Positions 1 to 26,076 of a stretch of 27,809 nt of DNA are shown here, piece after piece. How positions within the stretch are numbered: the stretch's first letter is position 1; the number at the start of each line of letters is the position of its first letter. Location: assembly GCA_964552335.1 (NCBI GenBank), contig CAZKGC010000001.1, forward strand, positions 1-27,809, given 5' to 3'. The notes below the pieces were generated by a model, which worked only from the letters and a program-made list of their open reading frames with translations, made no database searches and was not told the DNA's origin. This DNA is from Candidatus Hadarchaeota archaeon. GTDB taxonomy: Archaea > Hadarchaeota > Hadarchaeia > Hadarchaeales > Hadarchaeaceae. Made by a program: the position numbers and the translations under genes.

Positions 1-484
1 GACGAATGTGGCCCACGCGAAGCTCGAGGTCTTCAAAGCCAAGCTCCCGCATTAGGTTGTCCGCGAGCGCCATCACCTCAGCGTCGGCTTCCGGCCTCGG
101 CGAACCTATGATCTCAACTCCGGCTTGCAAAAACTGCCTCCACCTTTGTGCCTGGGGCTCCTCGTAGCGGAAGCAGTTGCCGAAGTAGCAGAGCTTGACC
201 GGTTTGGGCGTCGACCTCATCTGCTGGATGTAGAGGCGGACGACCGGCGCGGTGAGCTCCGGGCGCAGGGCCAGCTCCCGGCCAGATTTGTCCTTGAACG
301 CGTAAAGCTGGTTCACTATGTTGGAACCGCTTTTCTTCGTGAAGAGCTCGAGGTGCTCAAACAAGGGCGTCTCCACTTCCTCGTAGCCGTGGCGCGCGAA
401 GATCTCGCTCATAGCGCGTGTGACGTGGCGGACGCTGACCAGCTCCTCGCCGAACAGGTCACGTGTTCCACGCGGGCGCTGCAT
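1..484 (-). CDS. hisS: Histidyl-tRNA synthetase, N-terminal part (runs off window start)
   Basis: Manual translation from ATG at 484 gives MQRPRGTRDLFGEE...GYEEVETPLFEHLELF...LYAFKDKSGRELALRPELTAPVVR...FRYEEPQAQRWRQFLQAGVE, the classic HisRS N-terminus and motif 2. Not in the ORF track because it is truncated. Starts 2 nt after the aglB stop. Confidence 0.95.
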   Translation of the reverse strand, partial: MQRPRGTRDLFGEELVSVRHVTRAMSEIFARHGYEEVETPLFEHLELFTKKSGSNIVNQLYAFKDKSGRELALRPELTAPVVRLYIQQMRSTPKPVKLCYFGNCFRYEEPQAQRWRQFLQAGVEIIGSPRPEADAEVMALADNLMRELGFEDLELRVGHIR

Positions 485-486
485 GC

Positions 487-3400
487 CTACCCTCCTGAAG
501 ATACGATCCTGAATGTCCAAATCGAGGATGCGTTCTCGTTGCCGGCTACATCCTTGTCCGTGACTTTCCAGTAATAGTTTTCAGCGGGCAGCTCGGTCGT
601 CGGGGTATAAGTGTTTTCCATCAGCCAGATGTCGATGTCCGGGGAGCCGAACGCTATGTCGCTGTCCACGATCAGATGGTAGTTATCTGCGCCTGGGCTG
701 AGCGACCACTCAAACGTCGGGGTGTTGTCACCCGTCTCCGTCCCGTTCTCCGGGGCGTATAGCACTGGCGCCTCCGGAGGAACCGTGTCGACGGTGAGCG
801 TCCGGATATCGGAGGAGTTCTCGTCCGGGCCCACGACCGCCGCTACCTTCCAATAGTAATCGCCGTCAAGAAGAGCGTTCTCCTCTTCTATGGTGTACGA
901 AGTGACAGATGGGGCGAGGAATACATCTAATGTCGGAGATGACAGGTCCGGGTTAGTGCCGAGCAGCAGGCGATAGTTGTCCCCGTTGCCCCCTGCCCAC
1001 CTCAGAGTCGGCGTGTTGTCGTTCGTGAAAACCCCGTTTTCCGGAGAGCTCAGCGCGGGCGCCTGAGGAGGTGCTCTGATGGTTAGTGCGAATGTGTTCG
1101 ACCACTCACCAGCGTTTCCAGCCACATCTTTAGCTCTCACGTGCCAGTAGTACGTACCGTTCCTTTCAAATATGCGCGCGTATGAATTGTCAGTGCGGCT
1201 CGTGTCCACATCCACGTATGGGGTGGCAAAACTGTTCTCGTTATCGATCTGGATGTCGTATGTCGCTCCCTGCTCAGGTTCAGTCCACTGGAATGTTGCA
1301 TCCAGCGTCGAGAGCACGGTGCCGTCCTGCGGCCCAGAGAGCAGGGGCTGGGTTGGAGCCTGCGTGTCCACCGTGAACGTGGATGGGTTGGACCAGCCGA
1401 GCAGATTGTTCATGCTGTCGTATGCCGCGACACGCCAGTAGTATTCGCCGTCTTGTAGTGTCACGGTCGCGGTGTACGTCGTGCTGGTTATGTTGTCTTC
1501 ATGGATCAATGGTGAGGAGAAGCTTGAGTCGTCGTCCACCAACAATTCGTACCTGCTGGCACCGATCGTGTCCCAACTGAGGTCCGGGGTGTTGTCGTTC
1601 GTGAAACCCCCGTTTTCTGGAGAAATCAGATACGGCGCATGGTTGATCTCTATTATCTTCACCGTACTGTTTGAACTCGTGAAAGCCACTTGCAGATAAT
1701 TGATGTCTTGGATGTTACCTCCGAAAATACGCACGCCAATCGGGACGGCACGCCCAGCCATCTCAGCCGACACGCCTTTGATAAGCCATGCTGTCCTAAA
1801 GTTGCCGCTCCCATCAAGGATAATGAGCAACGTTTCTTGGATATCCGAGCCATAGTATGGCGAGTTGAACCCATCGTATTCTGATATTTTGCCCGTGTCG
1901 TCCACCCTCAAGACAGCGTAACCGTCCATGAACAAGTTTCCATTATCGGTCCGGAGATAGACAATCATATTCTGCGTGTCCAGAACCACGGCTGCCCTGT
2001 TTTCGCCAAAATTGAACACGTAGTTTACGCCCTCCGAGCTCGGCTGTAGCGAAGAAGGTGTCTTAATTCTTTCCGCATTCAACAGGATGTTTACTGGCTG
2101 CTGCGTGGAATAGTAGTCGTATGCTTGATAAAATTCATCGAGCGAAAATATCACGTAATCTATTCTGACGCCGTAGTTATCTCGGTATGTTTGGACGATC
2201 CACCTGAACTCGTTTTCACCCACTATAGGTAACCACTGGACATCGATTCGTCTCCCATTAATTTGGAACGATTTCCGGGATACATCTACACCATAAATAA
2301 GTGCACTGCTGTCCTCAACGTAATAGATGTAGTCTGGGGGGCGTGGGACAAAAGACGGATTATTTTCCCATGTCCCTTCTTCTGCCCTGATCTCAGCACC
2401 ATCGCACACGGTCGTCCGCCGTGCAGCGCCCGTGAGGAGGTGCCCGAACGACCACTGGATGGAGACCACTGAATTCTCCGACGTATTCTCTTGGAGCCAA
2501 GCGAATGCTTCCATGAATCCTTTATCCAATCCACTGACACCATGCCATTCCGTGGGTGGGCCAGTTTGGTAAGCGTTGGTGTATGCATTGGAAATAAACG
2601 GCGCGGCGACGATACCTGCCACAAGCAAAAGTGCGATGGGGTTCTGGAGGTGCTTCAGATGTTCCCCATAGGGTTCTAAAGAGAGTCGCTTGACAAGGGA
2701 CACCAACGTTGCTGCGCCGACGCCAGCTAGTGCCGGTAAAAATGACCACCACAGTCGCTCGAATCGCGCCTGCCCCTTCCCCGGCAACACCATCGCTACT
2801 AGGACGACCAGCCATGCAAAAGTTAAAATTTCCCATCGCTTCCTAGACCAACAGAACTTGAGGAATGCTAAGATAACCAGAGCGAGGATAAACGCCGTCA
2901 GAATAACAGCTGGAAAATTAGAGCCGTAAAATTTACCTAAGGTTTCACCCCAAGATGTTGGCGATTGCATCTCACTAGCATAACTGCTGAATGAAACTCC
3001 CGCACCTCCTCCTCCAATCCCAAGATATCCTGCGTAAGTCCCAAAGATGCTAACCCAGATTTCCGGGCCTTGCCCACCTAAGGCCCACAGCACGAGGGTT
3101 ATCACCACTACCATTCCAACCGTACCGGCTAGCACATCAATATGCCCGCGGATGGCCGAGAAAAATGCGCCAAGCAAGTCTGATGTTTTGCGTGAAAACT
3201 TCCCCAAGAATCCCACTAACAAAACGAATAATAACCCCAATACCAAGATGGCGATAATATAGTGCCAGCCGCCCCACGCCAGCCCGAAGAGCCCGTACAC
3301 CATCCCGGCCAAGAGCGCGAACTTTGGAATCGAGTTCCTAGAAGCCTTGAAAAGTTTTATAGTGAGATACATCGCCCATGCCCCGAGTATCAACTGAATA

Positions 3401-3873
3401 GGCTCCCTGTCGAACGCTCCAACCTTGTTCCAATAAATCGTCGACACCATGGTGGCGGCAAAGAACGCGGCGGCTACCCCCCCCACGTCGCCTCCAAGCT
3501 CCCTACCAATCAGAAAAATCGGGATGAGCGAGAGGGCAAAAATAAATGGGGCCCAGTACTTGACAACATCCATCAGGGTAACGCTTGGGTTTAAGGCGCT
3601 GACCCCACGATAAATCATCACGGCCAGGAGAGGTTGGACCTGCTCACCGAGTGATATGCCCAAACCGTATGGCGCGTGAGAAAGTGGGTTGTTTTCCGCC
3701 AGAGCATTTTCTCTATTTATCTCAAAAGCGGTATCGTATACCCAGCCACTATCGGAGGTGGTCAAAGTGTCGTACTTCTGCCCGGGGATCAACAGCACCG
3801 ATGTCGTAAACGCCATCAACGCAAGCATGTAGCCGACAATCAGCCATCGGCGATAGTTCAAATGGTCACCCAA
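487..3873 (-). CDS. aglB: STT3/AglB-family oligosaccharyltransferase-like membrane protein with four C-terminal Ig/FN3-like repeats
   Basis: Multi-TM N-terminal half with STT3-type motifs: LTTSDSGW (first catalytic Asp), GAFDRE (DxE), YASEMQ (TIxE/SVSE-like), GQARF, AFAWLQENT..SVV, and QWSFGH..AARRTTVCDG at the WWDYG position. The start could be TTG 3873 or TTG 3861. Confidence 0.85.
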   Translation of the reverse strand: MGDHLNYRRWLIVGYMLALMAFTTSVLLIPGQKYDTLTTSDSGWVYDTAFEINRENALAENNPLSHAPYGLGISLGEQVQPLLAVMIYRGVSALNPSVTLMDVVKYWAPFIFALSLIPIFLIGRELGGDVGGVAAAFFAATMVSTIYWNKVGAFDREPIQLILGAWAMYLTIKLFKASRNSIPKFALLAGMVYGLFGLAWGGWHYIIAILVLGLLFVLLVGFLGKFSRKTSDLLGAFFSAIRGHIDVLAGTVGMVVVITLVLWALGGQGPEIWVSIFGTYAGYLGIGGGGAGVSFSSYASEMQSPTSWGETLGKFYGSNFPAVILTAFILALVILAFLKFCWSRKRWEILTFAWLVVLVAMVLPGKGQARFERLWWSFLPALAGVGAATLVSLVKRLSLEPYGEHLKHLQNPIALLLVAGIVAAPFISNAYTNAYQTGPPTEWHGVSGLDKGFMEAFAWLQENTSENSVVSIQWSFGHLLTGAARRTTVCDGAEIRAEEGTWENNPSFVPRPPDYIYYVEDSSALIYGVDVSRKSFQINGRRIDVQWLPIVGENEFRWIVQTYRDNYGVRIDYVIFSLDEFYQAYDYYSTQQPVNILLNAERIKTPSSLQPSSEGVNYVFNFGENRAAVVLDTQNMIVYLRTDNGNLFMDGYAVLRVDDTGKISEYDGFNSPYYGSDIQETLLIILDGSGNFRTAWLIKGVSAEMAGRAVPIGVRIFGGNIQDINYLQVAFTSSNSTVKIIEINHAPYLISPENGGFTNDNTPDLSWDTIGASRYELLVDDDSSFSSPLIHEDNITSTTYTATVTLQDGEYYWRVAAYDSMNNLLGWSNPSTFTVDTQAPTQPLLSGPQDGTVLSTLDATFQWTEPEQGATYDIQIDNENSFATPYVDVDTSRTDNSYARIFERNGTYYWHVRAKDVAGNAGEWSNTFALTIRAPPQAPALSSPENGVFTNDNTPTLRWAGGNGDNYRLLLGTNPDLSSPTLDVFLAPSVTSYTIEEENALLDGDYYWKVAAVVGPDENSSDIRTLTVDTVPPEAPVLYAPENGTETGDNTPTFEWSLSPGADNYHLIVDSDIAFGSPDIDIWLMENTYTPTTELPAENYYWKVTDKDVAGNENASSIWTFRIVSSGG
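490..1638 (-). repeat. Four tandem ~96-aa Ig/FN3-like repeats (P.L.SP.NG....DNTP.x.W ... Y.W.V.A.D..GN...S....T..T)
   Basis: Repeat starts near 1638, 1359, 1074 and 783. Repeats 1 and 3 share 33/35 identical nt (1589-1623 vs 1013-1047), 576 nt apart. Confidence 0.85.
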
Positions 3874-3922: not shown

Positions 3923-4183
3923 TTATTTTTCGGGTGCGCTCTGTTCGCTTTCTTTCTCTTCCAACTTGGCTGGCGGAGGTGAAGGTGAAACTTCTCTTGT
4001 GGTGGCCATGATCCATCCGAGCCAGAAGCCCAGCCCGCAGACGACGAGCAACCCGACCGTGACGGGCAGGGCGAACGACATATCAATCACAGGCCCACTG
4101 AAATAACCATAGTAGATGTGAAGAACTATTACAACAACGGTAGCAATACACAGCAGCGCGCCCAATATTCTCGATGCACCCAA
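3923..4183 (-). CDS. Small two-TM archaeal membrane protein (W.GW.MATT..P..PP type)
   Basis: Two hydrophobic helices followed by GWIMATTREVSPSPPP and an acidic tail. TTG 4183 follows an AGGTGA RBS and a TTTAAATA box at ~4220-4227. The track start (4393) overlaps the kinase gene and is probably too long. Confidence 0.7.
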   Translation of the reverse strand: MGASRILGALLCIATVVVIVLHIYYGYFSGPVIDMSFALPVTVGLLVVCGLGFWLGWIMATTREVSPSPPPAKLEEKESEQSAPEK

Positions 4184-4271
4184 CGTATCACCTACTTCAA
4201 TCACCCTCCTCCCAAGCATATTTAAACATTTCGCGCTTTGTGGGAAGTTTGAGATACGTTCGCCTAGAAAT

Positions 4272-4787
4272 TCAGGTGGGAGGTTTTGGCCTGATTTTTC
4301 CGAGCGCGAACTGAACGAACTTGTTGATGTCTTCCAAAACATCTGGAGGGAAGGGGCCTCTCCCAAGGCCGTACTCATCCAGATAGAAGACATGCCCCCC
4401 CTTCATCCCGAAGTTCGAGGGTTTTATGTCCAGCACATATCCCTGCTTACTTGCTCTCCCAATCAAGGCGAAAATTTCTCTCAAGGCTCCAATCGAATAG
4501 GCTGGGAGGGGCCCAACGTATTCGTGAAAAGTGACAACCGCTGGACAGACGACTCCATCGCGCCTGATGCCAGTCACCGCTGTGCCGTAATATTCTGGTA
4601 GAAAATCCAACTTTTTCCTTATCTCCCGCTGGTGAGAATCAACCTCAACCGCCCGCTTCTGCAGCTCTTCGAGTGACCTACCCCTGCCCAGCTCCACCTT
4701 GAGCGCGATTTTTCCCGCTTTGAATACATACCTGTACAATCCCCTGCCGACCAGCTTTGGTCTCCCCTTCACACAAGTTACCTGCAT
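4272..4787 (-). CDS. Minimal protein-kinase-like (PKL fold) protein, ~171 aa
   Basis: G-loop LVGRGLYRYVF, IALKV lysine, candidate alphaC Glu (AVEVD), catalytic loop LDIKPSNF and DFG-like YLDEYG. ATG 4787 lies 16 nt after the rad50 stop. Confidence 0.75.
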   Translation of the reverse strand: MQVTCVKGRPKLVGRGLYRYVFKAGKIALKVELGRGRSLEELQKRAVEVDSHQREIRKKLDFLPEYYGTAVTGIRRDGVVCPAVVTFHEYVGPLPAYSIGALREIFALIGRASKQGYVLDIKPSNFGMKGGHVFYLDEYGLGRGPFPPDVLEDINKFVQFALGKIRPKPPT

Positions 4788-4803
4788 TCGATCCCAACAA
4801 TCA

Positions 4804-7206
4804 TCACTCGAACAATTCGGGCACCGCGACCTGCTCAACTTTTGTCGGCTCGTCGGAATCCTTGTCGCGGGAAAACCTGTACAAGTAGCCGCTGACGGCG
4901 CTCTCCAGGCGCTCCTCGTGGGTTATTAATAAGATCTGCCGCACAACCTCGGGGAGACGGTCTCTCAATATTTTCGCCAGTTCTTGGATACCTTCTGCGT
5001 CCAAGTTGTGGGTTGGCTCATCGAAGACTATCCACCTCAGGTTGGGTGCGAGGACAATTGAGAAAGCGATACGGAGCGCGAGGCAGGCGTCGGTCCGCTC
5101 GCCGCCGCTCGCTATTCCCTCGACCGGGACCCATTCGCCAGCACGGTCGCGAAGCTTCAACACGTAGTCGCCACCGCGTTCTCCTCCCTCAACTGCCAGC
5201 TGAACTCCAATGAAATCTCCATAGGGGTAGATGCTTTCCCACAAGTCATTCATGACCTCGTTGACCCCATCGATGAACATCCGGCGCATAGAGATCTGAG
5301 TTCGCGTGAGCGCAGTATGGATGGCGGTCAGCGCCTGAGCAGCATCCCGCAGGTGCGTGACCTCCGCTTCGCAGCGCAAAATCAGCGCGAGCTTCTCCCG
5401 TATGCTCTCCACGAATTTTTTCTTTTCGGCAAACAGCTGCTCCTTACCCGACAGTTCCGCGCGAAGGCGTTCCTGCGTGCCGACGAGCTCCTCCAATCGT
5501 TCACGAAATTCCTCCGCCTCTGTCTCGTCATAAGTGCGCCTCAGTTGTTCCACAGTCTGCTTGATCCGATCGCTTTCCACAAGTTTCTGCCTGTACTCGA
5601 TACCCCGCCTATCTACGTCCATTCGCAGTTGAAGAAGTTGTTTTGAGTTTGACAATTTATCGTAAAGTTCATCAACTTCCTTTCGGGCACACTCGTTTTC
5701 CGACCTTAACTTTTCGCTCTCGTCTCGCGCTTTCGGAATTTCCAGCTCCACTTCCCCTAGCCGTTTGGAGAGATCCGAGCGCTCCTCTTCAAGCTTAGGG
5801 ATGTCTCCAACCTCCTTCGCCAGCAGTATGCACTTCCGCTGCAACTCAAGCTTCTGGCGCAGGTCATCGCTGAGCCCCTTCAAGCGTAACTCAAGTTCAT
5901 TTGCACGCTTGTTGAAATCTTCGAGTTGTCCCTGGCGCTGGTGTAGAAGCTCCTGTTTTCTGGGCTCATCGAGGGGGCTCTCGCAGACGGGACACGTAGC
6001 CCCCGCCCCCGAGAGTTCGTCCATCGACCCCTTTAAGTCCTGAATCTTGGCGCGGGAAGCGGCAAGCTCGTCACCTACTTCGCGGAACTCTGTTTGAGAT
6101 CTTTCAATCACTTCCGCCAGTTTCTCCGGTTCCAATCCCTCCAGCTCCTCGCCAAGTTTTCGCTTTCGGGAAAGTTCGGCGGTTATCTTGTCCAGCTCAT
6201 CCCGAAGCATCTTTTTTTGAGTTTCCAACCCTTGCAGTCTCGAGAGGGTGATGGTAAGGCTTGAATTGAGTTGATTTGCCAAGGAAACCTTCTCGCTGTA
6301 AGCTCGATCCAACTCACTCGCCTGCTTTTGGATTTCCTCGACTCCGACGTCCGCGGCGGCTCCCAGCCTTTCCCTGAATTCATCGAGCTGTTGTTTCAGC
6401 GCCCCTATCGCACCACTGAGCTCACGATATGATTGCTCCAGCTGCACGAGTTTCTGCTCAATTTCGCGGAACTGTTGGACTTGGTTGCGGGTTGACTCGA
6501 GCTCTGGCTGTAGTTGCTGGAGTCTCACCGAAATCTCCTGTTTAGACGATTCAAGATCCCTCAACTCCTGCTCATGAATCGGCAGCATGGCGATTGACGA
6601 GTCTTGCTTAAGTTGATTCGCCGTTGCCTCGCGCTCCTGCGCACGATCCTTCACGCGACCCGACAACGCGACGATGCTCTTGCGCGCCTTTTCAAGCTTG
6701 TTTATGCCGAGAAGCTCGTCGATGCTTTCCATCCTTCTCCCTTTTGGGAGCATCAGAAAGTAATCGAGGCGGTTTTGTTCCGAATAAATAGCCCGCTCGA
6801 ACAAATCATAGTCAAGCTCCAGCAACGATTGGACGAGTTCGTTCACATGTCCGGAACTTGGGCTTTCAATAAGTTCCCCGGTTGCTTTTCTCAATTCGGA
6901 TAAAGACGTCCCGCTTCCCCGCTCAACGACTCGTTTGACGATATACTCGTTTCCATCGGGTGCCACGAAATTAACCTCCACCTCTGCCCGATCAAGAGGT
7001 CTAGGCCTGCTAGTGATCAAATCCTCTAACCTGATGCGGCGGGATTGCACCGCGGGCAGAGTTCCGAACAGCGCGTAAGTGATGGCATCCAGCACAGCGG
7101 ACTTGCCCGCTCCCATCATTCCTACCAGAACATTTGTGCCGTCGCCGAAGCGGAGCTCCGTGTCGCGGTGGGACTTCCAATTTTTCAGTTTAACGCGCGT
7201 TATCAC
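4804..7206 (-). CDS. rad50: DNA double-strand-break repair ATPase Rad50
   Basis: Walker A GMMGAGKS, Q-loop YSEQ, long coiled coil, central zinc hook CPVC, signature ASGGE, Walker B VFDEPT, H-loop LITH. Overlaps the mre11 stop. Confidence 0.95.
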   Translation of the reverse strand: MITRVKLKNWKSHRDTELRFGDGTNVLVGMMGAGKSAVLDAITYALFGTLPAVQSRRIRLEDLITSRPRPLDRAEVEVNFVAPDGNEYIVKRVVERGSGTSLSELRKATGELIESPSSGHVNELVQSLLELDYDLFERAIYSEQNRLDYFLMLPKGRRMESIDELLGINKLEKARKSIVALSGRVKDRAQEREATANQLKQDSSIAMLPIHEQELRDLESSKQEISVRLQQLQPELESTRNQVQQFREIEQKLVQLEQSYRELSGAIGALKQQLDEFRERLGAAADVGVEEIQKQASELDRAYSEKVSLANQLNSSLTITLSRLQGLETQKKMLRDELDKITAELSRKRKLGEELEGLEPEKLAEVIERSQTEFREVGDELAASRAKIQDLKGSMDELSGAGATCPVCESPLDEPRKQELLHQRQGQLEDFNKRANELELRLKGLSDDLRQKLELQRKCILLAKEVGDIPKLEEERSDLSKRLGEVELEIPKARDESEKLRSENECARKEVDELYDKLSNSKQLLQLRMDVDRRGIEYRQKLVESDRIKQTVEQLRRTYDETEAEEFRERLEELVGTQERLRAELSGKEQLFAEKKKFVESIREKLALILRCEAEVTHLRDAAQALTAIHTALTRTQISMRRMFIDGVNEVMNDLWESIYPYGDFIGVQLAVEGGERGGDYVLKLRDRAGEWVPVEGIASGGERTDACLALRIAFSIVLAPNLRWIVFDEPTHNLDAEGIQELAKILRDRLPEVVRQILLITHEERLESAVSGYLYRFSRDKDSDEPTKVEQVAVPELFE

Positions 7207-8491
7207 TTGTTTTCCCCCTTAGTTCAGCTTTCACAAGGTTTTCTACCACCCCAAAAACATTCTGCAGCGCCTCCTCCTCGCGTCCCTCGACCAGCAGGCC
7301 GTAGAGCGCTCGGACATCGAATATCTGGGTGTAGCCGGACTCGCGCAGGTTGCTCTCCAGCAGGGCCATGGCTGTCTCATCTATGGACATCCGCCGCTCC
7401 TTTAGTTCTCGCAAAAGCTGCAATTTCTCTTCCAAACCAGGAGCAACTAAATCTCCTTTGCTCACAACAACTAACGCCATGTCCGCGAACTCTTGGGTGA
7501 TCGCTCGCTCGTCGAACTCGCTGCGCGATGCTTCCTTGGCCAATGTCCCAACCAGCCTCACCCTTATGAGAGGAAGCTTCCCGAGATTTTTCCTCGGTCT
7601 CTTCAAAAGCTCTCTCACCTTGACCCTCACCGCCTCGTTTAGCCGAGGGACGCTCACCCCTTCGAACCTCATCTCCTCGTAGTAGAAATCCCGCGTAGAC
7701 TTGAGTTCGATGAATTCATACCTGAGCCCGTTGCCGAACTCGACCATGTAGAAACCTTTGGGAGTCTCTGCCTCAATTTGAAGCAGTTGCGTGCGCTCAG
7801 TGCCCCCAGGAAAGAGAATCGGTTTACCGTGAACAGTGGACTCGGTGCGGTAGTGGATGTGGCCGCACAAGTAGAGATCAAACCCGCTGGGCAGGTCGGA
7901 AATGTCCAGAGTGGGTAGCTCCTCGCTCGAGTAAATGAACTGCCCGACAGACTGATGCAGGGCCAAGATGTTGAACGCACCATGAACTGGCTTTGGGTTC
8001 CAAGTCGCGAACACATTCCTAGCGTGCTGCTCGGGCACATTGCTCATTCCGTGAATCGCGAGCTTGCCCTGAGGCGTGTCGAAAATCAACGTGTTGTGAT
8101 GCATGTGGATGAGTAGTCCGGCTGCCTCGAGCGCCTCGACCGGGTTAGTCAGTCCACGCGTGCGGCGCTCGTGGTTTCCGTGGAGGGCAACCACCGGAGT
8201 CCCTAGGAACGCCACGGGTGAAATTTCCTCAAAGTTTTTGTCGATCGTGTCGATGAGTCTGACTTCATTCCGCCCCCGTGCGAGTGGTGTCGAGAGGACG
8301 CGCAGCGCCCGAGCCCACACCTCCTGCCGCGGTATACGTGTGTCGAAGATGTCGCCAAGCAGTACGATGAGCTGTGCTCCGAGGTCGAGGGATTTTTCGA
8401 TTGCCTCCTGAAACTGAACAAAAGAGTCCTGCTCCCGCGGTGTTCCCCACTTTGCTCCAAGGTGCGGGTCGGCGATTACAGCTATCTTCAA
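7190..8491 (-). CDS. mre11: Mre11/SbcD-family nuclease
   Basis: Phosphoesterase motifs ADPHLG, LGDIFD, HGNHE, LHQ and GHIH. Directly upstream of rad50. Confidence 0.93.
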   Translation of the reverse strand: MKIAVIADPHLGAKWGTPREQDSFVQFQEAIEKSLDLGAQLIVLLGDIFDTRIPRQEVWARALRVLSTPLARGRNEVRLIDTIDKNFEEISPVAFLGTPVVALHGNHERRTRGLTNPVEALEAAGLLIHMHHNTLIFDTPQGKLAIHGMSNVPEQHARNVFATWNPKPVHGAFNILALHQSVGQFIYSSEELPTLDISDLPSGFDLYLCGHIHYRTESTVHGKPILFPGGTERTQLLQIEAETPKGFYMVEFGNGLRYEFIELKSTRDFYYEEMRFEGVSVPRLNEAVRVKVRELLKRPRKNLGKLPLIRVRLVGTLAKEASRSEFDERAITQEFADMALVVVSKGDLVAPGLEEKLQLLRELKERRMSIDETAMALLESNLRESGYTQIFDVRALYGLLVEGREEEALQNVFGVVENLVKAELRGKTSDNAR

Positions 8492-8601: not shown

Positions 8602-9825
8602 ATGTCAGAACCCTGGGTCGAGAAGTATCAGCCCCACAAACTTCGTGAAATCGTCGGACAATCAAAAGCCATTCAGGATATTACGACCTGGGCAGAGAGT
8701 TGGAAAAAAGGCAAACCCATCAAGCCGGCAATTCTGCTTTACGGACCAGCTGGAACGGGAAAGAGCGTGGCCGCTGCTGCTCTCGCACGTGAGTTTGGCT
8801 GGGATCTGGTAGAGATGAACGCCAGCGACGAACGCACTATGTCTGAAATCAAGCGCGTGGCCGGGGCCGCGGCGACTGCGGGAACCTTGCTCACCGGAGC
8901 TGGTGGTCGAAGGCTGATAGTGCTCGATGAAGCGGACAACATCCACGGAACCTCTGACCGGGGAGGATACCGCGCCCTCGGGGAGTTGCTTGAAGAGACC
9001 CAGAACCCGCTCGTGCTGATAGCCAACGACCAGTACGCTATACCCTGGGAAATCCGCGCGGCGTGTGAACTGGTCAACTTCAGGCGTTTGATGGAGGAGG
9101 TGACCTTCAAGGAACTGCAGCGGATATGCCGGGCGGAGGGAATCACAGCCGAACCTCTGGCCCTCAAGGTTATTGCCGAGACCGCGAAGGGAGACCTGCG
9201 CTCGGCCATCAATGACCTTCAGACATTCGCGATGGGTAAAAAAAACCTAGCCGTCAAAGATCTGGCCCTCTACCGCCGCGACCGAGAGGTTAATGTATTC
9301 GACTTCCTGAAGCAGCTCCTCTCGGTTGATAATGCCATGGATGCAAGAATCCTGCTCTGGGCACTCGACCTTCCCCCCGACGAAGCGCTTGGATGGATAG
9401 ATGAGAATATCCCGCGAATGGTCGCAGACCCGGCAGATTTAGTTAAAGTGTACGACGCTATTTCGAGGGCAGACATATTTTTGGGCCGCGCGAGGAGAGG
9501 ACAGGCCTATGGGCTCTGGGGGTACGCGAGCGACCTGATGAGTGCCGGGGTGGCCCTATCGAGGGGCAAGCACCTCAAGTGGTCGAAGTTCCAGCCCCCG
9601 AGCCACATACGACGTTTTGCCCGTACGCGAGTTTCCAGAGCGGTGCGGGATGCTGTTGCTCGCAAGGTCGCCCAGCGCTGCCACACTTCTGCTAGAATTG
9701 CGCGGAAGGATGTTCTTCCTTATCTGGGTGTGATCTTCAAACATGACAAAAACGCTGCAGCTGCGATAGCAGGCGAACTCGAACTCACTGATGCCGAATC
9801 AAGTTTTCTGAAAGCGCTGGGGTGA
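8602..9825 (+). CDS. rfcL: Replication factor C large subunit
   Basis: PWVEKYQP box II, Walker A GPAGTGKS, EMNASD, Walker B LDEADNI, GDLRSAINDLQ, and a typical RFC-L C-terminal region. Confidence 0.93.
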   Translation: MSEPWVEKYQPHKLREIVGQSKAIQDITTWAESWKKGKPIKPAILLYGPAGTGKSVAAAALAREFGWDLVEMNASDERTMSEIKRVAGAAATAGTLLTGAGGRRLIVLDEADNIHGTSDRGGYRALGELLEETQNPLVLIANDQYAIPWEIRAACELVNFRRLMEEVTFKELQRICRAEGITAEPLALKVIAETAKGDLRSAINDLQTFAMGKKNLAVKDLALYRRDREVNVFDFLKQLLSVDNAMDARILLWALDLPPDEALGWIDENIPRMVADPADLVKVYDAISRADIFLGRARRGQAYGLWGYASDLMSAGVALSRGKHLKWSKFQPPSHIRRFARTRVSRAVRDAVARKVAQRCHTSARIARKDVLPYLGVIFKHDKNAAAAIAGELELTDAESSFLKALG

Positions 9826-10955
9826 ACTTGAAGATAGTCGAGAAACTTCAGCTGGGGAGGCTCGCTACCCCGCTCCCCGACAGGAGGCGCCCCATCTACA
9901 ACTGGTTCCCCGTGAAGGAGGCGTTCTCGCGGGATCTAATCCGCCTGCTCACAGAAACTTGGGGACTTCACGAGGGAGACTTGTTGCTTGATCCATTCTG
10001 CGGAGTCGGCACGACACCGCTCTCGTGCAAGGAACTCGGTCTTGACTGCGTTGGGTTTGATGTGCACCCGATGATGTTGTTGGCATCTCACGTGAAGCTC
10101 AGGAACTATGCCGCCGAAGAACTCAAGAGGGCAATCGAGAGTTTGATGGGGCCAAAGTTTGAGAAGATAGAAGTTGATGTGCCGGGTTTTGTGGCGCGCG
10201 TCTTCCCGAGGTCCATTCTCGGGGAAATCTTTTCCTTCAGAAAGAAAATCGCGGAGGTGGCGGACGAGGGGGTTCGTGAGTTCATGCTGCTGGGTCTGGC
10301 CATCGCTGCGATGAAGTGCAGCTGGGCGTACAAGGACGGGGCGGCGATAAAGGTAGTCAAGCACTCTGTGCCGCCGCTACGAAAGACTCTCGGACAACAG
10401 CTCTTACTAATGTGTCACGATCTTGGGCGATTCATAGCAAAACCAGCTAAAATTAAGGTTGAGCACCGCGATGCCAGAGAACTGAAACTTGAAGACGAGA
10501 TCGTTGATGCAGTGATAACTTCTCCGCCGTACCTGAGGAAACAGGAGTACATCCACACATACCGGATCGAACAGTGGATTCTTGAATCGGAAGCGCCGCG
10601 TGCGGACGAGCTCATCGGAGTTCGCGCTGGGGATGCCGGTGCGGAAGATTTTTCAAAAATTGCGGAGTTTGTTGAAGGCAGACCGCTTGAGGCAAAACTT
10701 TACTTCAAGGACATGTTCATGGTGCTCCAAGAGCTTTATCGGGTCTGCAGGCATGGGGCGAAAATTTGTTTGGTGACGTCAGATGGGTGTTCTCCAGAAG
10801 GTGTTGTTGAAGTCTGTGAAACGCTTAGCAGGCTCGCCGAACGTGCCGGGTTCAGGGCCAAGCGTATGATCGTGGTGAACAAGCGTTTCTGCACGACTCC
10901 CGCCAGAAAGAAAATTGGAGTAGCGCGTGAATCTCTGCTGATGTGGGAGCGGTGA
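9822..10955 (+). CDS. Site-specific DNA amino-methyltransferase, probably N4-cytosine, alpha-type motif order
   Basis: SAM-binding LLDPFCGVGTT near the N-terminus and catalytic VITSPPY in the C-terminal half. The GTG start overlaps the rfcL TGA (GTGA). Confidence 0.8.
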   Translation: MNLKIVEKLQLGRLATPLPDRRRPIYNWFPVKEAFSRDLIRLLTETWGLHEGDLLLDPFCGVGTTPLSCKELGLDCVGFDVHPMMLLASHVKLRNYAAEELKRAIESLMGPKFEKIEVDVPGFVARVFPRSILGEIFSFRKKIAEVADEGVREFMLLGLAIAAMKCSWAYKDGAAIKVVKHSVPPLRKTLGQQLLLMCHDLGRFIAKPAKIKVEHRDARELKLEDEIVDAVITSPPYLRKQEYIHTYRIEQWILESEAPRADELIGVRAGDAGAEDFSKIAEFVEGRPLEAKLYFKDMFMVLQELYRVCRHGAKICLVTSDGCSPEGVVEVCETLSRLAERAGFRAKRMIVVNKRFCTTPARKKIGVARESLLMWER

Positions 10956-16918: not shown

Positions 16919-18502
16919 TTATAATTGGGCAACATCCTCGACCCAGGCGAACTTCCGCTGGAGAGTCGTGGGATAGATATTCTTCCAATCGTACCCGAGT
17001 TCCTTCGCCCACTTCGCGTAGATGCGGGGGTCGATGTAGGACTTGAGCGATGTCCCGAGGTTGTAGTCGCGTGTGGCCTTTGCGAGCTTCACCTTGATTT
17101 CGGCCGCCTCTATCCTCTTCAGCAGGGACTCTATTCTCTTAGCGCGCATCTTGGATGGGGACTTTTTTCTAACCTCTCTCAGTTGCGCCTTCAGGGCCTT
17201 CAGCCTTTCCTCCTTCTTCCTCAGGGATTCTTCCCAGTTCTTCGGCAGCTTTCGCTTGTGGTTGCAGGTGACCGCCGCCTCAAGGTTCGCCATGGTCGCC
17301 GTGTACTTTTTCTTGAACTCTGGGTCCTCTGGCCGGAGTTCATCTTTCGCCAAGTAGTCCCTCACCACTTTTGACGCGTGGTACGTCCTGAAGACCTTCG
17401 CCGTGAGCCAAGGCATCACCTTCCCCAAAAAAGCATTGACCATCTCAGAGCGCACCCCGGAGAAAACTGGTTCTCTAGGTTTCCCGATAAATGACTTCAG
17501 GTTATTCACGACCTGCGGCGGAGGCTTAATGGTTTTGACCCATCTCACCGAGTCCTTGCCCAAAAAATCGAACTTCACGTTTCCCGACTCGTCTATCCCG
17601 ATGTGCGAGCCCCTGAGGGTGACAGCACCAACCGTGTCGGCCTCGTCCTTGTCCTTCTCGTCTCCAACCCTCAGCTTCAGGGCGTCTATCAGGTACGCGA
17701 CCGTTGCCACTTTCCGCTTGGTGATGTCGTCTGAAGTTAGGTTCATCTCTATGTGGCGCCTTACTTTTTCGACAAGCTGCTCAAGCTCCAAGGCCTCTTT
17801 GAACTTTATGATCTCACGCTCCTGCTTGAAGCGCGCGCTGTCGGCTATCCATACATACTTCATCTTCCCCGTGAGCTTGTCCCGCCATTTTGCAACCCAG
17901 AGGGCTCTTGGGTCGAACTCTCTGCCACCCCACTCGTTTCCATCTGGTGCCTTGGGGGTCGGAGCGTCAGGTGACAGGTTGAGGATGATGTCCCTGTAGC
18001 TGACCCTCGGCTTCCACCTCCCCCTGAGCGGGTGCTCGCCGCGCCCCATGAAGATGCAGGGAGGCTCGACCGTGTAGTTGCCTATCTCCACGCGCTCGCC
18101 GTTGAGGATTACGTATCCGTACTTCTCCCTGTTTGCCTCCCTGAGTTTCTTCCTAGCCTCGGCCAGCCTCTTCTTCTCCTCGCGCGACATGCCTTCCTTT
18201 TTGACCTTTTCCTCCCCGACCCAGCGCTGAATCTCCGAGAAATCGAAGTCCTCTATCTTAGAGGAGGGGTCGACTCCAAGCGCCTTCGAGAAGTCACCCA
18301 CGAAATTTTTTATGAAGACTGGATCCTTCACGTAGTCCGTCCCAAGCTTCTTTACCCAAGCCAAAGCCATCTCTTCTTGTTCTGGCGTCAGAGAGAGCTT
18401 CGTTCCCCTGTATTTTATTGCAAAACCTTGTGGTTCGCAGGATGGGATGAGGACCCCGTTGTGGGCAAGCTGCGTTATCTTTGGTGGTTCCGACATGGGC
18501 AT
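16919..18502 (-). CDS. DNA topoisomerase IB, large eukaryote-like type
   Basis: FMGRGEHPLRG, KYVW, LKLRVGDEK, FDFLGKDSV, AKVFRTY, CNHKR, a coiled-coil linker and LGTSLKSYIDPR. All five catalytic residues (R, K, R, H, Y) are present. Start is 18502 or 18496. Confidence 0.95.
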   Translation of the reverse strand: MPMSEPPKITQLAHNGVLIPSCEPQGFAIKYRGTKLSLTPEQEEMALAWVKKLGTDYVKDPVFIKNFVGDFSKALGVDPSSKIEDFDFSEIQRWVGEEKVKKEGMSREEKKRLAEARKKLREANREKYGYVILNGERVEIGNYTVEPPCIFMGRGEHPLRGRWKPRVSYRDIILNLSPDAPTPKAPDGNEWGGREFDPRALWVAKWRDKLTGKMKYVWIADSARFKQEREIIKFKEALELEQLVEKVRRHIEMNLTSDDITKRKVATVAYLIDALKLRVGDEKDKDEADTVGAVTLRGSHIGIDESGNVKFDFLGKDSVRWVKTIKPPPQVVNNLKSFIGKPREPVFSGVRSEMVNAFLGKVMPWLTAKVFRTYHASKVVRDYLAKDELRPEDPEFKKKYTATMANLEAAVTCNHKRKLPKNWEESLRKKEERLKALKAQLREVRKKSPSKMRAKRIESLLKRIEAAEIKVKLAKATRDYNLGTSLKSYIDPRIYAKWAKELGYDWKNIYPTTLQRKFAWVEDVAQL

Positions 18503-20766: not shown

Positions 20767-21240
20767 ATGAGAAGAGACTCAACCGGCGTTTCTCCCGTTA
20801 TCGCAACGATATTGCTGATAGCTATAACAGTGATCGCCATTGGTGTAGTGATGGTATTCGTCAGTGGACTTGGCAGACCAACACCTCCTTTGAGTGCGAT
20901 CATCTCGGTGAGAAATGCCACAAGAAACAGCACAAAGCTAACAATAGAGCACACCGGTGGGGACCCGATAAGGGATGCGTTCTGCGGGAAAGCAGTTGAT
21001 AATCATGTCATAACAAGTGATAATTGGATAAACCTTGAAGTAATGATTAACGGTGGATTAGTTACCACTACAGAAGACAAGACAAAGTTTAACAACGTCT
21101 TGATAGACAACAACACGTATGACTTCACAGTCGGAAACATCCTATTGCTCGAGAAGATTACGGCTTTGAATTCCGGCGATGTGATAACGATAATCTACAC
21201 GCCCGCTAGCCAAGAAATCGCAAGAGTGACGGTATCTTAG
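20767..21240 (+). CDS. Archaeal type IV pilin (Pilin_N/DUF1628-type N-terminus)
   Basis: Class III signal peptide MRRDSTG|VSPVIATILLIAITV, GAGGTGA RBS, TTTAAATA box upstream, and the HTGGD motif typical of these pilins. Confidence 0.88.
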   Translation: MRRDSTGVSPVIATILLIAITVIAIGVVMVFVSGLGRPTPPLSAIISVRNATRNSTKLTIEHTGGDPIRDAFCGKAVDNHVITSDNWINLEVMINGGLVTTTEDKTKFNNVLIDNNTYDFTVGNILLLEKITALNSGDVITIIYTPASQEIARVTVS

Positions 21241-21264
21241 TCTTAAAAAGCAACGAAAGCCAAA

Positions 21265-21375
21265 CGCCGTGGGAAGACCTCTCTCGCCCCAGTCAGTTCC
21301 CTGAGGCGCGGGAGTTGGTCAACTGGCCTAGCAAGGGGCTCTCATCTAACTGAGCACGGCGCTAGTGTATTTTTT
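21265..21375 (+). other. GC-rich structured intergenic element ending in a T-run (terminator/attenuator-like)
   Basis: CGCCGTG 21265-71 / CACGGCG 21355-61, GCCCC 21286-90 / GGGGC 21335-39, and CAGTTCCC 21294-301 / GGGAGTTG 21310-17 (two G.U pairs), followed by TATTTTTT. Confidence 0.4.
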
Positions 21376-21397
21376 AGATACGACAAGATAGTAAAAT

Positions 21398-24274: not shown

Positions 24275-24299
24275 TCGGCTTTTTCATCTCTTCTGAAAG

Positions 24300-26075
24300 T
24301 TACGCGAGCACCCAGAGGGAGAAGACCAAATACGCCAGTACCATCATCGCTACAGAGTGTTTTAACCCCGCCCAGACATCGCCCGATCCGAGCTGCCCCG
24401 CGACCAGACCGGCGCAGAAACCCTGAATCAGTGAGGCATGGAACAGGAGACGCTTGACCTCCTCCTGTGGTAAACCGGGTGTTATCGGCATGCCGGGAGC
24501 AGGAGCGGCCCCGCCTGGAAGTATCTGGAGCATGTAGGTGGATATCATGCCGGCCGTGAAGAGAAACATGACAAACGACATGTACACGATCACGACGTAT
24601 GTTGTCATCGTTCCTCGTCTCTCATGTTTCAGGGACCTTGCTGTTGAGGCGTCGAGGGCCAAGATGTCTACAACGTCGCTTATCTCCCCGCTCGCCTCCA
24701 TCGCCTTTTTCATCACTCCAACCGACCTCGATACCATCGCGCTCCTAACCCTATCGTCAAAACTCGACATCGCTTCAGAGGTTGATGCCCCCCATTCCAT
24801 CTCCCCGCTCATCTTCCTCAACTCGGAGCTGAGTGGGCCAAGCTCAGATGCGGATGCCGACTTGATGGCCCGGGCGGGGGTGAGACCTGAAGCTATCGAG
24901 CTGGAGAGGCTGGTGAGAAAATCTGGAAAAGACTCCTCGATCTTCCCTGTTCTCCTCACCTTTATCTCGTAGAGGACAACGAATGGCAGAGTGGAAATAA
25001 GGACGACGAAAAATGCTGTCGATTCACTGAATCGCCCCCAAGAAACTTGGGCCAGCAAGAAGACGATGGCGATGGGAAGGCTCACCAAGAAAATGTGAGA
25101 TGGGGCTGTGCGCAAGGCCTGCAGGAGCTTTTTGAATGCCCTAGAAAATCTGCCTCTCTCAAACGCCTTCGCCAGCTCACTTTTCTCTTTGCCCTTCGGC
25201 TTTCCCTCTTTCTCCTTCGCGCGCTTTACTACGACGGGAAAACCTGAAAACCTTGAGACGAGAACGACGAAAAAGGAGGTGCCGAGGGGAATAAGGAGAT
25301 AGATGAGGAGATAGAGAGGAACAGTGTAAAACGTGCCGATTATCCCAAACAGGATCAACATTATCACCGCCAGCAGGGGGCCTAGCCCGAGTATGATAAC
25401 GTAGAACTCCGCCATGAGACCAAGACCCTCCAGCGATCGTCTCTGCCCGGCGCCGGACTCTGCATAAAACTGTCTGGACTTGCTCTCTAGATATTTCGCC
25501 ACATCGCCTCCGGTGATCATGGTGGAAGCGAGAAGTTCCAAAAAATTCCTGAATTTCTCTGAGGGTGTGGTGCGCGCGACCTCCCTGACCGCCGATATTG
25601 GGTCATGACTGAGGTACTCGACACTCCTGACCACCGCCCTCGCCTCCCTCGCCATCTCCCCCTGAGACTCGTCCTCGCCCATCGACCTGAATATATCCGT
25701 CACTTCTCCTCCGCCTTTGCTGAGCGCGTACATGTAGGACACGGAGTGAGGAAGCATGCTCTCTATCTGCGCCTTCCTCGCGCTCGATATCGCGCCCAAG
25801 TACAGGAGGAATGCACGGTAACTCATGTATCCAAATGCAAGCGCCATGAGGAGTACAACGGCGATGGAGTACATCAGCTCCAGACCGATCCAACTTGAAA
25901 TGAGATATCCCCCTGCTCCAGTGAGAGCCGCTATTATGGCCGAAGAGGATACAGCAATGGAGAGATATCTCCTCGGAGAAATATCCTTCCTCGCCCGCAG
26001 GAGTGCCATCTGAAGGTTCTGGTACCTCTTGCCCTTCAGGAACCTCTCGATGATTTTTGCCACGTCGCTCCCCAA
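24300..26075 (-). CDS. Type IV pilus/T2SS-F family membrane platform protein (two T2SSF domains, FlaJ/TadBC-like)
   Basis: Two cytoplasmic domains (IESMLPHSVSYM..LSKGG; IEESFPDFL..LSSSIASG) each followed by TM helices, and C-terminal GLVAGQL..G....GLKH. Directly after the ATPase. Confidence 0.88.
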   Translation of the reverse strand: MGSDVAKIIERFLKGKRYQNLQMALLRARKDISPRRYLSIAVSSSAIIAALTGAGGYLISSWIGLELMYSIAVVLLMALAFGYMSYRAFLLYLGAISSARKAQIESMLPHSVSYMYALSKGGGEVTDIFRSMGEDESQGEMAREARAVVRSVEYLSHDPISAVREVARTTPSEKFRNFLELLASTMITGGDVAKYLESKSRQFYAESGAGQRRSLEGLGLMAEFYVIILGLGPLLAVIMLILFGIIGTFYTVPLYLLIYLLIPLGTSFFVVLVSRFSGFPVVVKRAKEKEGKPKGKEKSELAKAFERGRFSRAFKKLLQALRTAPSHIFLVSLPIAIVFLLAQVSWGRFSESTAFFVVLISTLPFVVLYEIKVRRTGKIEESFPDFLTSLSSSIASGLTPARAIKSASASELGPLSSELRKMSGEMEWGASTSEAMSSFDDRVRSAMVSRSVGVMKKAMEASGEISDVVDILALDASTARSLKHERRGTMTTYVVIVYMSFVMFLFTAGMISTYMLQILPGGAAPAPGMPITPGLPQEEVKRLLFHASLIQGFCAGLVAGQLGSGDVWAGLKHSVAMMVLAYLVFSLWVLA

Positions 26076-26076
26076 A

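Follow-up and report, generated by a model that had tools for sequence, protein, structure and literature searches.

A Hadarchaeota-wide family of STT3/AglB-type proteins in which the WWDYG motif is replaced and the acceptor site of the outer domain appears remodelled

Introduction

A stretch of 27,809 nucleotides from a Candidatus Hadarchaeota archaeon (NCBI GenBank assembly GCA_964552335.1, contig CAZKGC010000001.1, positions 1 to 27,809 of the forward strand; hereafter the window) carries, as the longest open reading frame (ORF) at its left end, a gene for a member of the STT3/AglB/PglB superfamily of oligosaccharyltransferases (OSTs), in which the hallmark WWDYG motif is replaced by QWSFG. 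The replacement, generalised as x-W-S-[F/Y]-G-H, is shared by a family of proteins found across the phylum Hadarchaeota. As judged from alignments, this family keeps the catalytic residues of the membrane-embedded core, lacks both parts making up the outer domain's Ser/Thr-binding pocket, and has acquired other invariant residues in their place. The protein is probably an active, Hadarchaeota-wide OST-type transferase with remodelled acceptor recognition, and probably the AglB equivalent of this lineage.

The catalytic subunits of OSTs are defined by two DXD motifs and a TIXE/SVSE motif in the membrane, and, in the outer domain, by the WWDYG, DGGK/DNxTxNx[ST] and DK/MI motifs. Of these, WWDYG and DK/MI jointly make up the pocket that binds Ser/Thr, and activation of the acceptor Asn amide falls to the first DXD acid together with the Glu of TIXE/SVSE (PMC8342417). 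In the form WWDXG the first of the outer-domain motifs occurs in AglB, PglB and Stt3 alike, only its fourth position being variable, as in Euryarchaeota (PMC11407970), and it counts as a hallmark universal to the N-oligosaccharyltransferases of the three domains (PMC11407970, PMC8342417). The WWD pocket is the structural reason for the N-x-S/T signal, and a whole phylum that replaces WWD and DK/MI represents a natural experiment on the rewiring of sequon recognition. Our search of the literature at our disposal found no description of an STT3 lineage without WWD, or of non-canonical WWDYG variants like the present one, and nothing on AglB, STT3 or N-glycosylation in Hadarchaeota or Hadesarchaea. 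In public databases, proteins of the family are named only 'STT3 domain-containing protein' or 'hypothetical protein'.

Results

Membership in the STT3/AglB/PglB superfamily

The product of the gene begins with a GT-C membrane core (amino acids (aa) 1 to ~436); the outer domain, of mixed alpha/beta type, spans aa ~449-745, and the remainder (aa ~746-1128) consists of four Ig-like repeats. The Pfam STT3 model (PF02516, the STT3 N-terminal part) reaches 52.6 bits (cut-off 24.5), over aa 66-245 only; the NCBIfam model TIGR04154 (archaeo_STT3) scores 36.5 bits, below its cut-off of 450; and a Pfam scan of the 1128-aa protein gave no match to PF21436 or PF22627, the core and C-terminal domain models that both match canonical relatives. 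A phmmer search of the PDB returned human STT3B, STT3A and yeast Stt3. The family profile matched STT3A, STT3B, Stt3 and the Archaeoglobus fulgidus enzyme AfAglB, with E 3e-19 to STT3A and an alignment that runs from the second transmembrane (TM) helix through the WWDYG position to the C-terminal 'TSSNgLVKV' end, while hhalign of the family against an alignment of canonical archaeal AglBs gave a probability of 100 and E 5.8e-51 over 635 columns.

The predicted structure agrees. The GT-C fold of OST catalytic subunits has a multi-pass (13-TM) membrane domain ahead of a mixed alpha/beta outer domain. An AlphaFold2 model of residues 1-720, made from a 43-sequence alignment (predicted local distance difference test score 91.3, predicted template modelling score 0.86), is helical to aa ~436 and mixed alpha/beta thereafter, with a long helix at residues 578-599 where the DK helix is expected. 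In a Foldseek comparison with the PDB the top 19 matches were all OST catalytic subunits (STT3A, STT3B, yeast Stt3, PglB and AfAglB; E 4e-16 to 2e-12, TM-score 0.46-0.52), and the next-ranked were DPY19, ArnT, AftA and ALG9. Sequence and fold both place the protein in the STT3/AglB/PglB superfamily, as an initial annotation made from the letters of the window had proposed.

Replacement of WWDYG by x-W-S-[F/Y]-G-H

Nucleotides 2443-2457, read as the reverse complement CAG TGG TCG TTC GGG, encode Q473-W-S-F-G477 of ORF 487-3873. In the phmmer alignments the segment VVSIQWSFGHLLTGAARRTTVCDG, which contains 'vvsiQWSFGhlltgaarrttvcdg', pairs with the WWDYG stretch of human STT3B and likewise with that of STT3A; QWSFG is also set opposite WWDYG by the family profile (STT3A, STT3B and yeast Stt3) and by hhalign (canonical archaeal AglBs). 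A search for WWD elsewhere in the 1128-aa protein found none. The initial reading of QWSFG as a replaced WWDYG in otherwise canonical context is upheld by these alignments.

The motif x-W-S-[F/Y]-G-H is present in 130 of 132 family members, and in no member checked does WWD stand at the homologous position. In an alignment of 103 family sequences, on which all column counts given here are based, the first position is Q in 54 and E in 46, the fourth is F in 55 and Y in 47, S475 is present in 102, and W474, G477 and H478 are present in all 103. The conservation of these last three residues spans homologues down to 36% identity; at the first position, P, H, T, D or G is found in more distant members. 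Conservation of this order is far beyond chance.

Logan contigs from two independent sediment-metagenome runs are identical over nucleotides 2200-2700 (0 differences), and those of related strains (90-95% identity, two further runs) carry many substitutions around nucleotides 2443-2457 and none within them. An assembly or sequencing error, which the initial annotation had raised as a change confined to a single genome, and a pseudogene are both ruled out by these independent identical assemblies, by the 130 homologues that carry the motif and by intact ORFs in ~48 genomes.

Catalytic residues of the membrane core

D41, the residue corresponding to the first catalytic acid, pairs with D49 of STT3A 'EFDPYFNY' in the phmmer alignment and with the Asp of canonical 'DPY' in hhalign, and is Asp in 102 of the 103 sequences. 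The second DXD motif, D155-R-E157, pairs with D-N-E of STT3 'GSYDNEG' and with D-T-D of the canonical archaeal 'GFxDTD'; D155 is invariant (103/103), and position 157 is Glu in 92 sequences and Asp in 11. For the Glu of the TIXE/SVSE motif, hhalign sets 'YASEMQ' opposite canonical 'TVaEmq', and A299 and E301 are present in all 103. The HMMER alignment to STT3A is offset at E301, so that its assignment is based on hhalign and on invariance, and the T-I/S-V part of the motif is not conserved in the family. R370 pairs with STT3A 'vMVRLml' and canonical 'giRF', and both R370 and R373 occur in 103 of 103 sequences; we take R370 to be equivalent to the canonical Arg that is R375 in PglB. R426 of AfAglB is a near neighbour of the phosphate site (PMC8342417).

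All loci that cover these sites carry the same catalytic residues. The three membrane-core hallmarks, that is DXD-1, DXD-2 and the TIXE/SVSE Glu, are on this evidence present throughout the family. They coincide with the acidic residues (in TSD, DRE and ASE) that had been noted as retained at the outset, and the presence of D41, D155, E301 and R370 in 102-103 of 103 sequences speaks against an inactive relic, which was also considered then.

Losses and gains in the outer domain

Downstream of the motif, D491-G492 corresponds to the DG of DGGK and is followed by x-E, not G-K, the Lys position being occupied by Glu in 89 of 103 sequences. Many of the canonical archaeal relatives compared also lack G-K (for example 'TFDGASQN'), and the DGGK motif discriminates poorly. 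The region homologous to the DK/MI helix is the aromatic-rich segment DYVIFSLDEFYQAY, within which hhalign places 'FSLDEFYQAY' opposite canonical 's~DmigK'; identity is low there and the placement approximate. The segment is free of Lys, as the initial annotation had observed of this region, and across the 103 sequences the columns of aa 577-590 show no conserved Asp..Lys, no conserved Met..Ile and no majority of Lys. The DNxTxNx[ST] double sequon of eukaryotic STT3 is absent from this protein. As far as alignment can tell, the protein has neither the WWDXG nor the DK/MI motif of characterised OSTs.

Other residues are invariant instead. Directly after DG the family has an insertion of ~45 aa, which hhalign shows as a gap on the side of the canonical profile and within which W502-E503-N504 and P512-P513-D514-Y515 are invariant. 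It is followed by a second family-specific element, in which G540-R541-R542-x-D544 is invariant. New invariant residues thus appear to have arisen at the site of the lost Ser/Thr-pocket elements. The coordinates of these features, and of the neighbouring genes described below, are given in Table 1.

Table 1. Position of the STT3/AglB-type gene, its motifs and domains, and the adjoining genes in the window
Feature	Position	Strand	Residues and remarks
STT3/AglB-superfamily gene	487..3873	-	1128 aa; from ORF list; TTG start, TAG stop at 487-489
TTSDSGW, first catalytic acid D41 (DXD-1, external loop 1)	3742..3762	-	aa 38-44
GAFDREP, second DXD, D155-R-E157 (external loop 2)	3400..3420	-	aa 152-158
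YASEM, E301 as Glu of TIXE/SVSE motif (external loop 5)	2968..2982	-	aa 298-302
GQARFERLWW, conserved Arg R370	2746..2775	-	aa 367-376
QWSFGH, family motif x-W-S-[F/Y]-G-H in place of WWDYG	2440..2457	-	aa 473-478; phmmer, family profile and hhalign alignments
CDGAE, D491-G492 as DG of DGGK	2392..2406	-	aa 490-494; D491-G492 invariant
Family-specific insertion, ~45 aa, directly after DG	2260..2397	-	aa 493-538; gap in canonical profile (hhalign)
NGRRIDVQ, family-specific outer-domain element	2236..2259	-	aa 539-546; G540-R541-R542-x-D544 invariant
DYVIFSLDEFYQAY, region homologous to DK/MI motif helix	2119..2160	-	aa 572-585; aromatic-rich
Ig-like (Big_13-type) repeats x4, ~95 aa each, YYW[RHK]V core	490..1638	-	Pfam Big_13, Ig_Rha78A_N, DUF4962 N-terminal
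hisS (histidyl-tRNA synthetase), 5' part, runs off window	1..484	-	translation; Pfam tRNA-synt_His called in locus L001
Small protein, predicted 2-TM, motif GLGFWLGWIMATTKE	3923..4219	-	98 aa; directly upstream of STT3-like gene

Extent and distribution of the family

When 5.8 billion proteins were searched with the STT3 part as query, 109 homologues of 36-86% identity came to light; those that bear a name are assigned to Hadarchaeota, Hadarchaeales or Hadesarchaea, and essentially all have [Q/E]-W-S-[F/Y]-G-H. The family profile was also run exhaustively with HMMER against 1.84 billion cluster representatives. Of the proteins that span the motif, those that score above ~120 bits have xWSxGH, save for seven intermediates whose motifs are different but likewise not WWD. 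Among the 93 listed relatives with scores of 113 bits or less, all but three have WWD[F/Y/P]G, the three being P0188 (YWD), P0187 (WWP) and P0191 (without WWD); the canonical WWD relatives that could be named belong to Woesearchaeota, Aenigmarchaeota and Undinarchaeales, and some of the best canonical relatives lie in assemblies that are absent from the Hadarchaeota list. The boundary of the family, as drawn by the motif, is sharp.

A sister group of STT3-like proteins was also recovered (P0133, P0134, P0140, P0141, P0143, P0147 and P0191; locus L057, 10001-12499). Its members score 150-270 bits against the family profile, P0191 scoring ~92 bits, and have more degenerate motifs (DWEIGY, HWELGY, PWPVGY, DWYLGY, PFGIGH); they are without the TIXE Glu, and hisS is not adjacent.

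Scanning a single genome for each GTDB species, we located 54 loci in ~48 species-level assemblies, nearly all labelled Hadarchaeota or Hadesarchaea, the exceptions being one 'Methanobacteriota', one 'Hodarchaeaceae' and two 'uncultured archaeon'. The records with off-taxon labels are locus L020 (JBDRCL01, 'Methanobacteriota'), locus L043 (JASEGJ01, 'Hodarchaeaceae') and protein P0031 ('Desulfitobacteriaceae bacterium'). They are probably mislabelled or mis-binned; the small protein that accompanies the family (see below) is, in the 'Hodarchaeaceae' metagenome-assembled genome, of the typical Hadarchaeota type.

Every locus that covers the site carries the motif except L028, which has EWAIGH. 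Some genomes hold two copies: L017 and L028 in JBFMBF01 (isolate MAG157), and L004 and L039 in QMWE01 (isolate B75_G9). L028 (protein P0093) is the second copy of MAG157 and is lengthened by a large additional insertion that follows the W-E-N element; beside it, the same genome holds a hisS-linked copy.

Whether QWSFG is conserved across a clade had been posed as a question by the initial annotation, and x-W-S-[F/Y]-G-H proves to define a phylum-wide family. These data are best explained by a family specific to the phylum Hadarchaeota and vertically inherited throughout; its phylum-wide occurrence, essentially single copy number and synteny are the reasons for regarding it as a vertically inherited core gene.

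A conserved unit with a small membrane protein and hisS

The hisS gene begins immediately downstream, its ATG (484-482) lying 2 nucleotides past the TAG stop of the STT3-like gene, and an AGGAGG sequence is located inside the 3' end of the latter. This tight linkage had been remarked upon initially and is general: wherever a locus includes downstream sequence, hisS comes next on the same strand, at distances of mostly 3 to ~100 nucleotides, L028 being the sole exception.

On the other side, the 98-aa protein encoded directly upstream has two hydrophobic stretches, from which two TM helices (2-TM) are predicted, and the near-invariant motif GLGFWLGWIMATTKE. A homologue lies upstream on the same strand in 42 Hadarchaeota loci (L003-L056), directly in 41 of these and ~4.2 kb away in L033; 88 homologues were found in all, and all those with names are from Hadarchaeota. 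Pfam and NCBIfam scans of the small protein produced only sub-threshold, inconsistent matches and no family. One orthologue has a sub-threshold, full-length match (E 1e-3) to DPM2, the regulatory subunit of dolichol-phosphate-mannose synthase, which is a lead and not a finding. The conserved unit, in order, is the gene for the small membrane protein, the STT3-like gene and hisS. The phylum-wide family, the apparent remodelling of the whole acceptor site of the outer domain, conserved insertion included, and the small membrane gene that precedes all go beyond the initial annotation.

The Ig-like repeats at the C-terminal end, with cores at aa 811, 908, 1006 and 1100, occur in about half of the family. 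Since family members of ~730 aa lack them and end right after the conserved 'TSSNGLVKV..NH', the repeats are an accessory surface extension.

Discussion

A proposed mode of action

In the reading that we favour and consider fairly probable, the protein is an active though divergent member of the STT3/AglB/PglB superfamily that retains the membrane-embedded OST machinery, comprising D41, D155-x-E157, E301 and R370 at the phosphate site. Such an enzyme most likely still takes a glycan from a polyprenol- or dolichol-phosphate carrier and passes it to an acceptor on the membrane's outer face. An active enzyme with a polyprenol-phosphate donor is suggested because the metal-, amide- and phosphate-site residues are invariant down to 36% identity; and since D41 and E301, the two Asn-activating acids, persist, an amide plausibly remains the acceptor.

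The +2 Ser/Thr site of the outer domain, made of WWD and DK/MI, would by contrast have been rebuilt. Only the second Trp and the Gly survive; where the Asp stood there is an invariant Ser, with a His, also invariant, behind it, and the DK lysine is absent. The ~45-residue insertion with W-E-N and PPDY, together with the GRRxD element, would have been added beside the rebuilt site. Because both elements of the Ser/Thr pocket are lost together, with other invariant residues in their stead, acceptor selection seems to have changed and not merely drifted, and the acceptor is very probably chosen by a rule other than the classical N-x-S/T read-out. Its single-copy, syntenic and phylum-wide occurrence is the reason for regarding the protein as, most probably, the functional AglB equivalent of the lineage and not a sporadic paralogue. 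It is likely to work with the small 2-TM protein encoded upstream, and may be co-transcribed, and hence co-expressed, with hisS.

A bolder form of this proposal can be put forward tentatively, as the less probable outcome. Hadarchaeota would have no canonical AglB, and the enzyme, with the small 2-TM protein as a subunit, would glycosylate surface proteins according to a different sequon or acceptor rule, implemented through xWSxGH, the W-E-N/PPDY insertion and GRRxD. The family would then constitute the first natural OST lineage minus the Ser/Thr pocket.

Several considerations count against a remodelled acceptor rule and a role as AglB equivalent. That role is deduced from single-copy synteny, and S475, H478, the insertion and GRR are presumed, by homology, to lie near the catalytic site. 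W474, S475 and H478 are hydrogen-bonding residues that might still hold a Ser/Thr hydroxyl, and the first position of the motif, being variable (Q/E/P/H/T/D/G), may make no contact with the substrate. The hhalign alignment of the outer domain is of low identity. Finally, counts of N-x-S/T in a pilin and a 958-aa surface protein encoded in the window, and in the outer domain of the enzyme itself, are near expectation, with no significant excess or depletion in what is a tiny sample.

Alternative explanations

The initial annotation had offered altered acceptor specificity and a repurposed paralogue as alternatives for an active transferase. Either would fit the pattern of conservation described above. 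Two explanations that compete with our own, about equal to each other in probability, seem to us rather unlikely.

One is that the enzyme does the same job with different residues. The protein would be the AglB of Hadarchaeota, the hydroxyl of N-x-S/T being held by W474, S475 and H478 (and perhaps Q/E473), and the change of motif would represent neutral drift in a deep-branching lineage. Consistent with this are the survival of the second Trp and the Gly, of the DG downstream and of every catalytic residue, the capacity of Ser and His to donate or accept hydrogen bonds, the single-copy, syntenic, phylum-wide distribution that befits a housekeeping OST, and the fact that the fourth position of WWDXG is already variable in Euryarchaeota (PMC11407970). 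Neutral drift accords poorly, however, with the loss of WWD and DK/MI together and the invariance of W-E-N, PPDY and GRRxD at exactly that place. Moreover, W-W-D is found in every other STT3, AglB and PglB sampled, including the nearest relatives, except for 3 of the 93 listed, which argues that WWD is not easily replaced; the lack of an N-x-S/T excess in the pilin, the 958-aa protein and the outer domain points weakly in the same direction.

The other is that Hadarchaeota also possess a canonical WWD AglB, the present family being an old duplicate whose OST core would serve a different acceptor, be it another residue or sequon, a particular surface protein, or a lipid or polysaccharide, or would mainly hydrolyse lipid-linked glycans. 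Archaea with multiple AglB paralogues are known, A. fulgidus having three (PMC3703281), and a second, AglB-independent OST activity exists in Haloferax (PMC11407970). The family itself has duplicated at least once (L017 and L028 in MAG157), its more degenerate sister group (DWEIGY, HWELGY etc.) is without the TIXE Glu, and OST-like GT-C enzymes with other acceptors exist, DPY19 among them. Against this, D41 and E301, both of which activate the Asn amide, are retained, which favours an amide acceptor. It is also weak evidence against a duplicate that no canonical AglB occurs within +/-10 kb of any of 56 loci, and that none of the canonical relatives that could be named is from Hadarchaeota. A tblastn search with 93 canonical AglBs of 0.8 Mb of Hadarchaeota loci plus the window, in which the flanks amount to +/-10 kb and not to whole genomes, matched the variant gene alone. 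A profile of 18 canonical AglBs, used in a word-index protein search with narrow candidate retrieval, brought up mainly Undinarchaeales relatives of its first sequence and no protein named Hadarchaeota.

An inactive relic or an assembly or sequencing error, to which the absence of the hallmark motif would by itself point, is exceedingly improbable given identical independent assemblies, the motif shared by 130 homologues, catalytic residues invariant to 36% identity, and intact, full-length ORFs with conserved gene order in ~48 genomes.

Comparison with known systems

Of the characterised enzymes, AglB (A. fulgidus AglB-L; PDB 3WAJ, 5GMY and 7E9S) is likewise a single-subunit GT-C protein with a multi-pass core and an outer mixed alpha/beta domain, and has in common with the present protein DXD-1, DXD-2, the TIXE Glu, the phosphate-site Arg and the ...W-x-x-G-H...DG framework (Foldseek E 2e-14, TM-score ~0.48; family profile E 8e-5). 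The Hadarchaeota protein differs in having xWS for WWD, no DK/MI, Glu at the Lys position of DGGK, the ~45-aa insertion after DG and the GRRxD element; in scoring below threshold with PF21436, PF22627 and TIGR04154; and in its genomic setting, with a dedicated small 2-TM gene upstream and a fixed place beside hisS, outside any glycosylation gene cluster.

The eukaryotic enzymes STT3A, STT3B and Stt3 (PDB 6S7O, 6S7T and 6EZN) are the best matches in the PDB, both in sequence (E 3e-19) and in structure (Foldseek E 4e-16). The resemblance extends over the motif region, where 'WSfGHlltGaaeRatvcDG' of the family corresponds to WDYGYQITAMANRTILVDN of STT3, and over the C-terminal end, where 'TSsNgLVKV' corresponds to TTEHWLVRIYKV. 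In contrast to them, the present protein has no SVSE, WWD, DNxTxNx[ST] or DK and, as far as is known, no multi-subunit complex. Bacterial PglB (PDB 3RCE, 5OGL and 6GXC) shares the fold class and the catalytic acids (Foldseek E 1e-14), but has WWD, the MI motif and, in R331, a read-out of the acidic residue at -2, none of which is found here. The C-mannosyltransferase DPY19, the next-best structural match (E 1e-7), combines an OST-like GT-C fold and a dolichol-phosphate sugar with a different peptide acceptor. It is far more distant in both sequence and structure, and serves as an analogy for the same core with a new acceptor, not as a relative.

If the acceptor rule is indeed a new one, the prediction of N-glycosites in uncultured subsurface archaea would change, a fresh specificity would become available for glyco-engineering, and the annotation 'STT3 domain-containing protein' would be hiding a functionally distinct family. 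The small membrane protein, as a candidate subunit, and the fixed linkage to hisS provide further testable handles.

Other features of the window

Upstream of the conserved unit, the regions 4272-8491 (- strand) and 8602-10955 (+ strand) contain an operon for Rad50 (with zinc hook) and Mre11, preceded by a 188-aa ORF that has no Pfam family and whose conservation is limited to five related loci. Here too are a divergent RFC-like AAA+ gene and, following it, an N6/N4 DNA methylase gene, an arrangement found again in the distant locus L001. At 16919-18502 (- strand) the window encodes a full-length DNA topoisomerase IB of eukaryotic type (Pfam Topoisom_I_N, Topoisom_I and Topo_C_assoc, E 1e-58 to 1e-65). 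Topoisomerase IB is patchily distributed in Archaea, and its presence here may be worth phylogenetic attention.

At the far end of the window (20767-27780) is a type IV pilus-like locus with genes for an archaeal pilin (157 aa), the 958-aa surface protein, and PilC-like (T2SSF) and PilB-like (T2SSE) proteins. The surface protein has CBM96 and DUF7289 domains and contains two internal tandem duplications, one of ~105 aa ('FYRENVQH[ND]ITGIPAADNY...') and one of ~30 aa ('VYEGGT...DDG.YENIFENAY').

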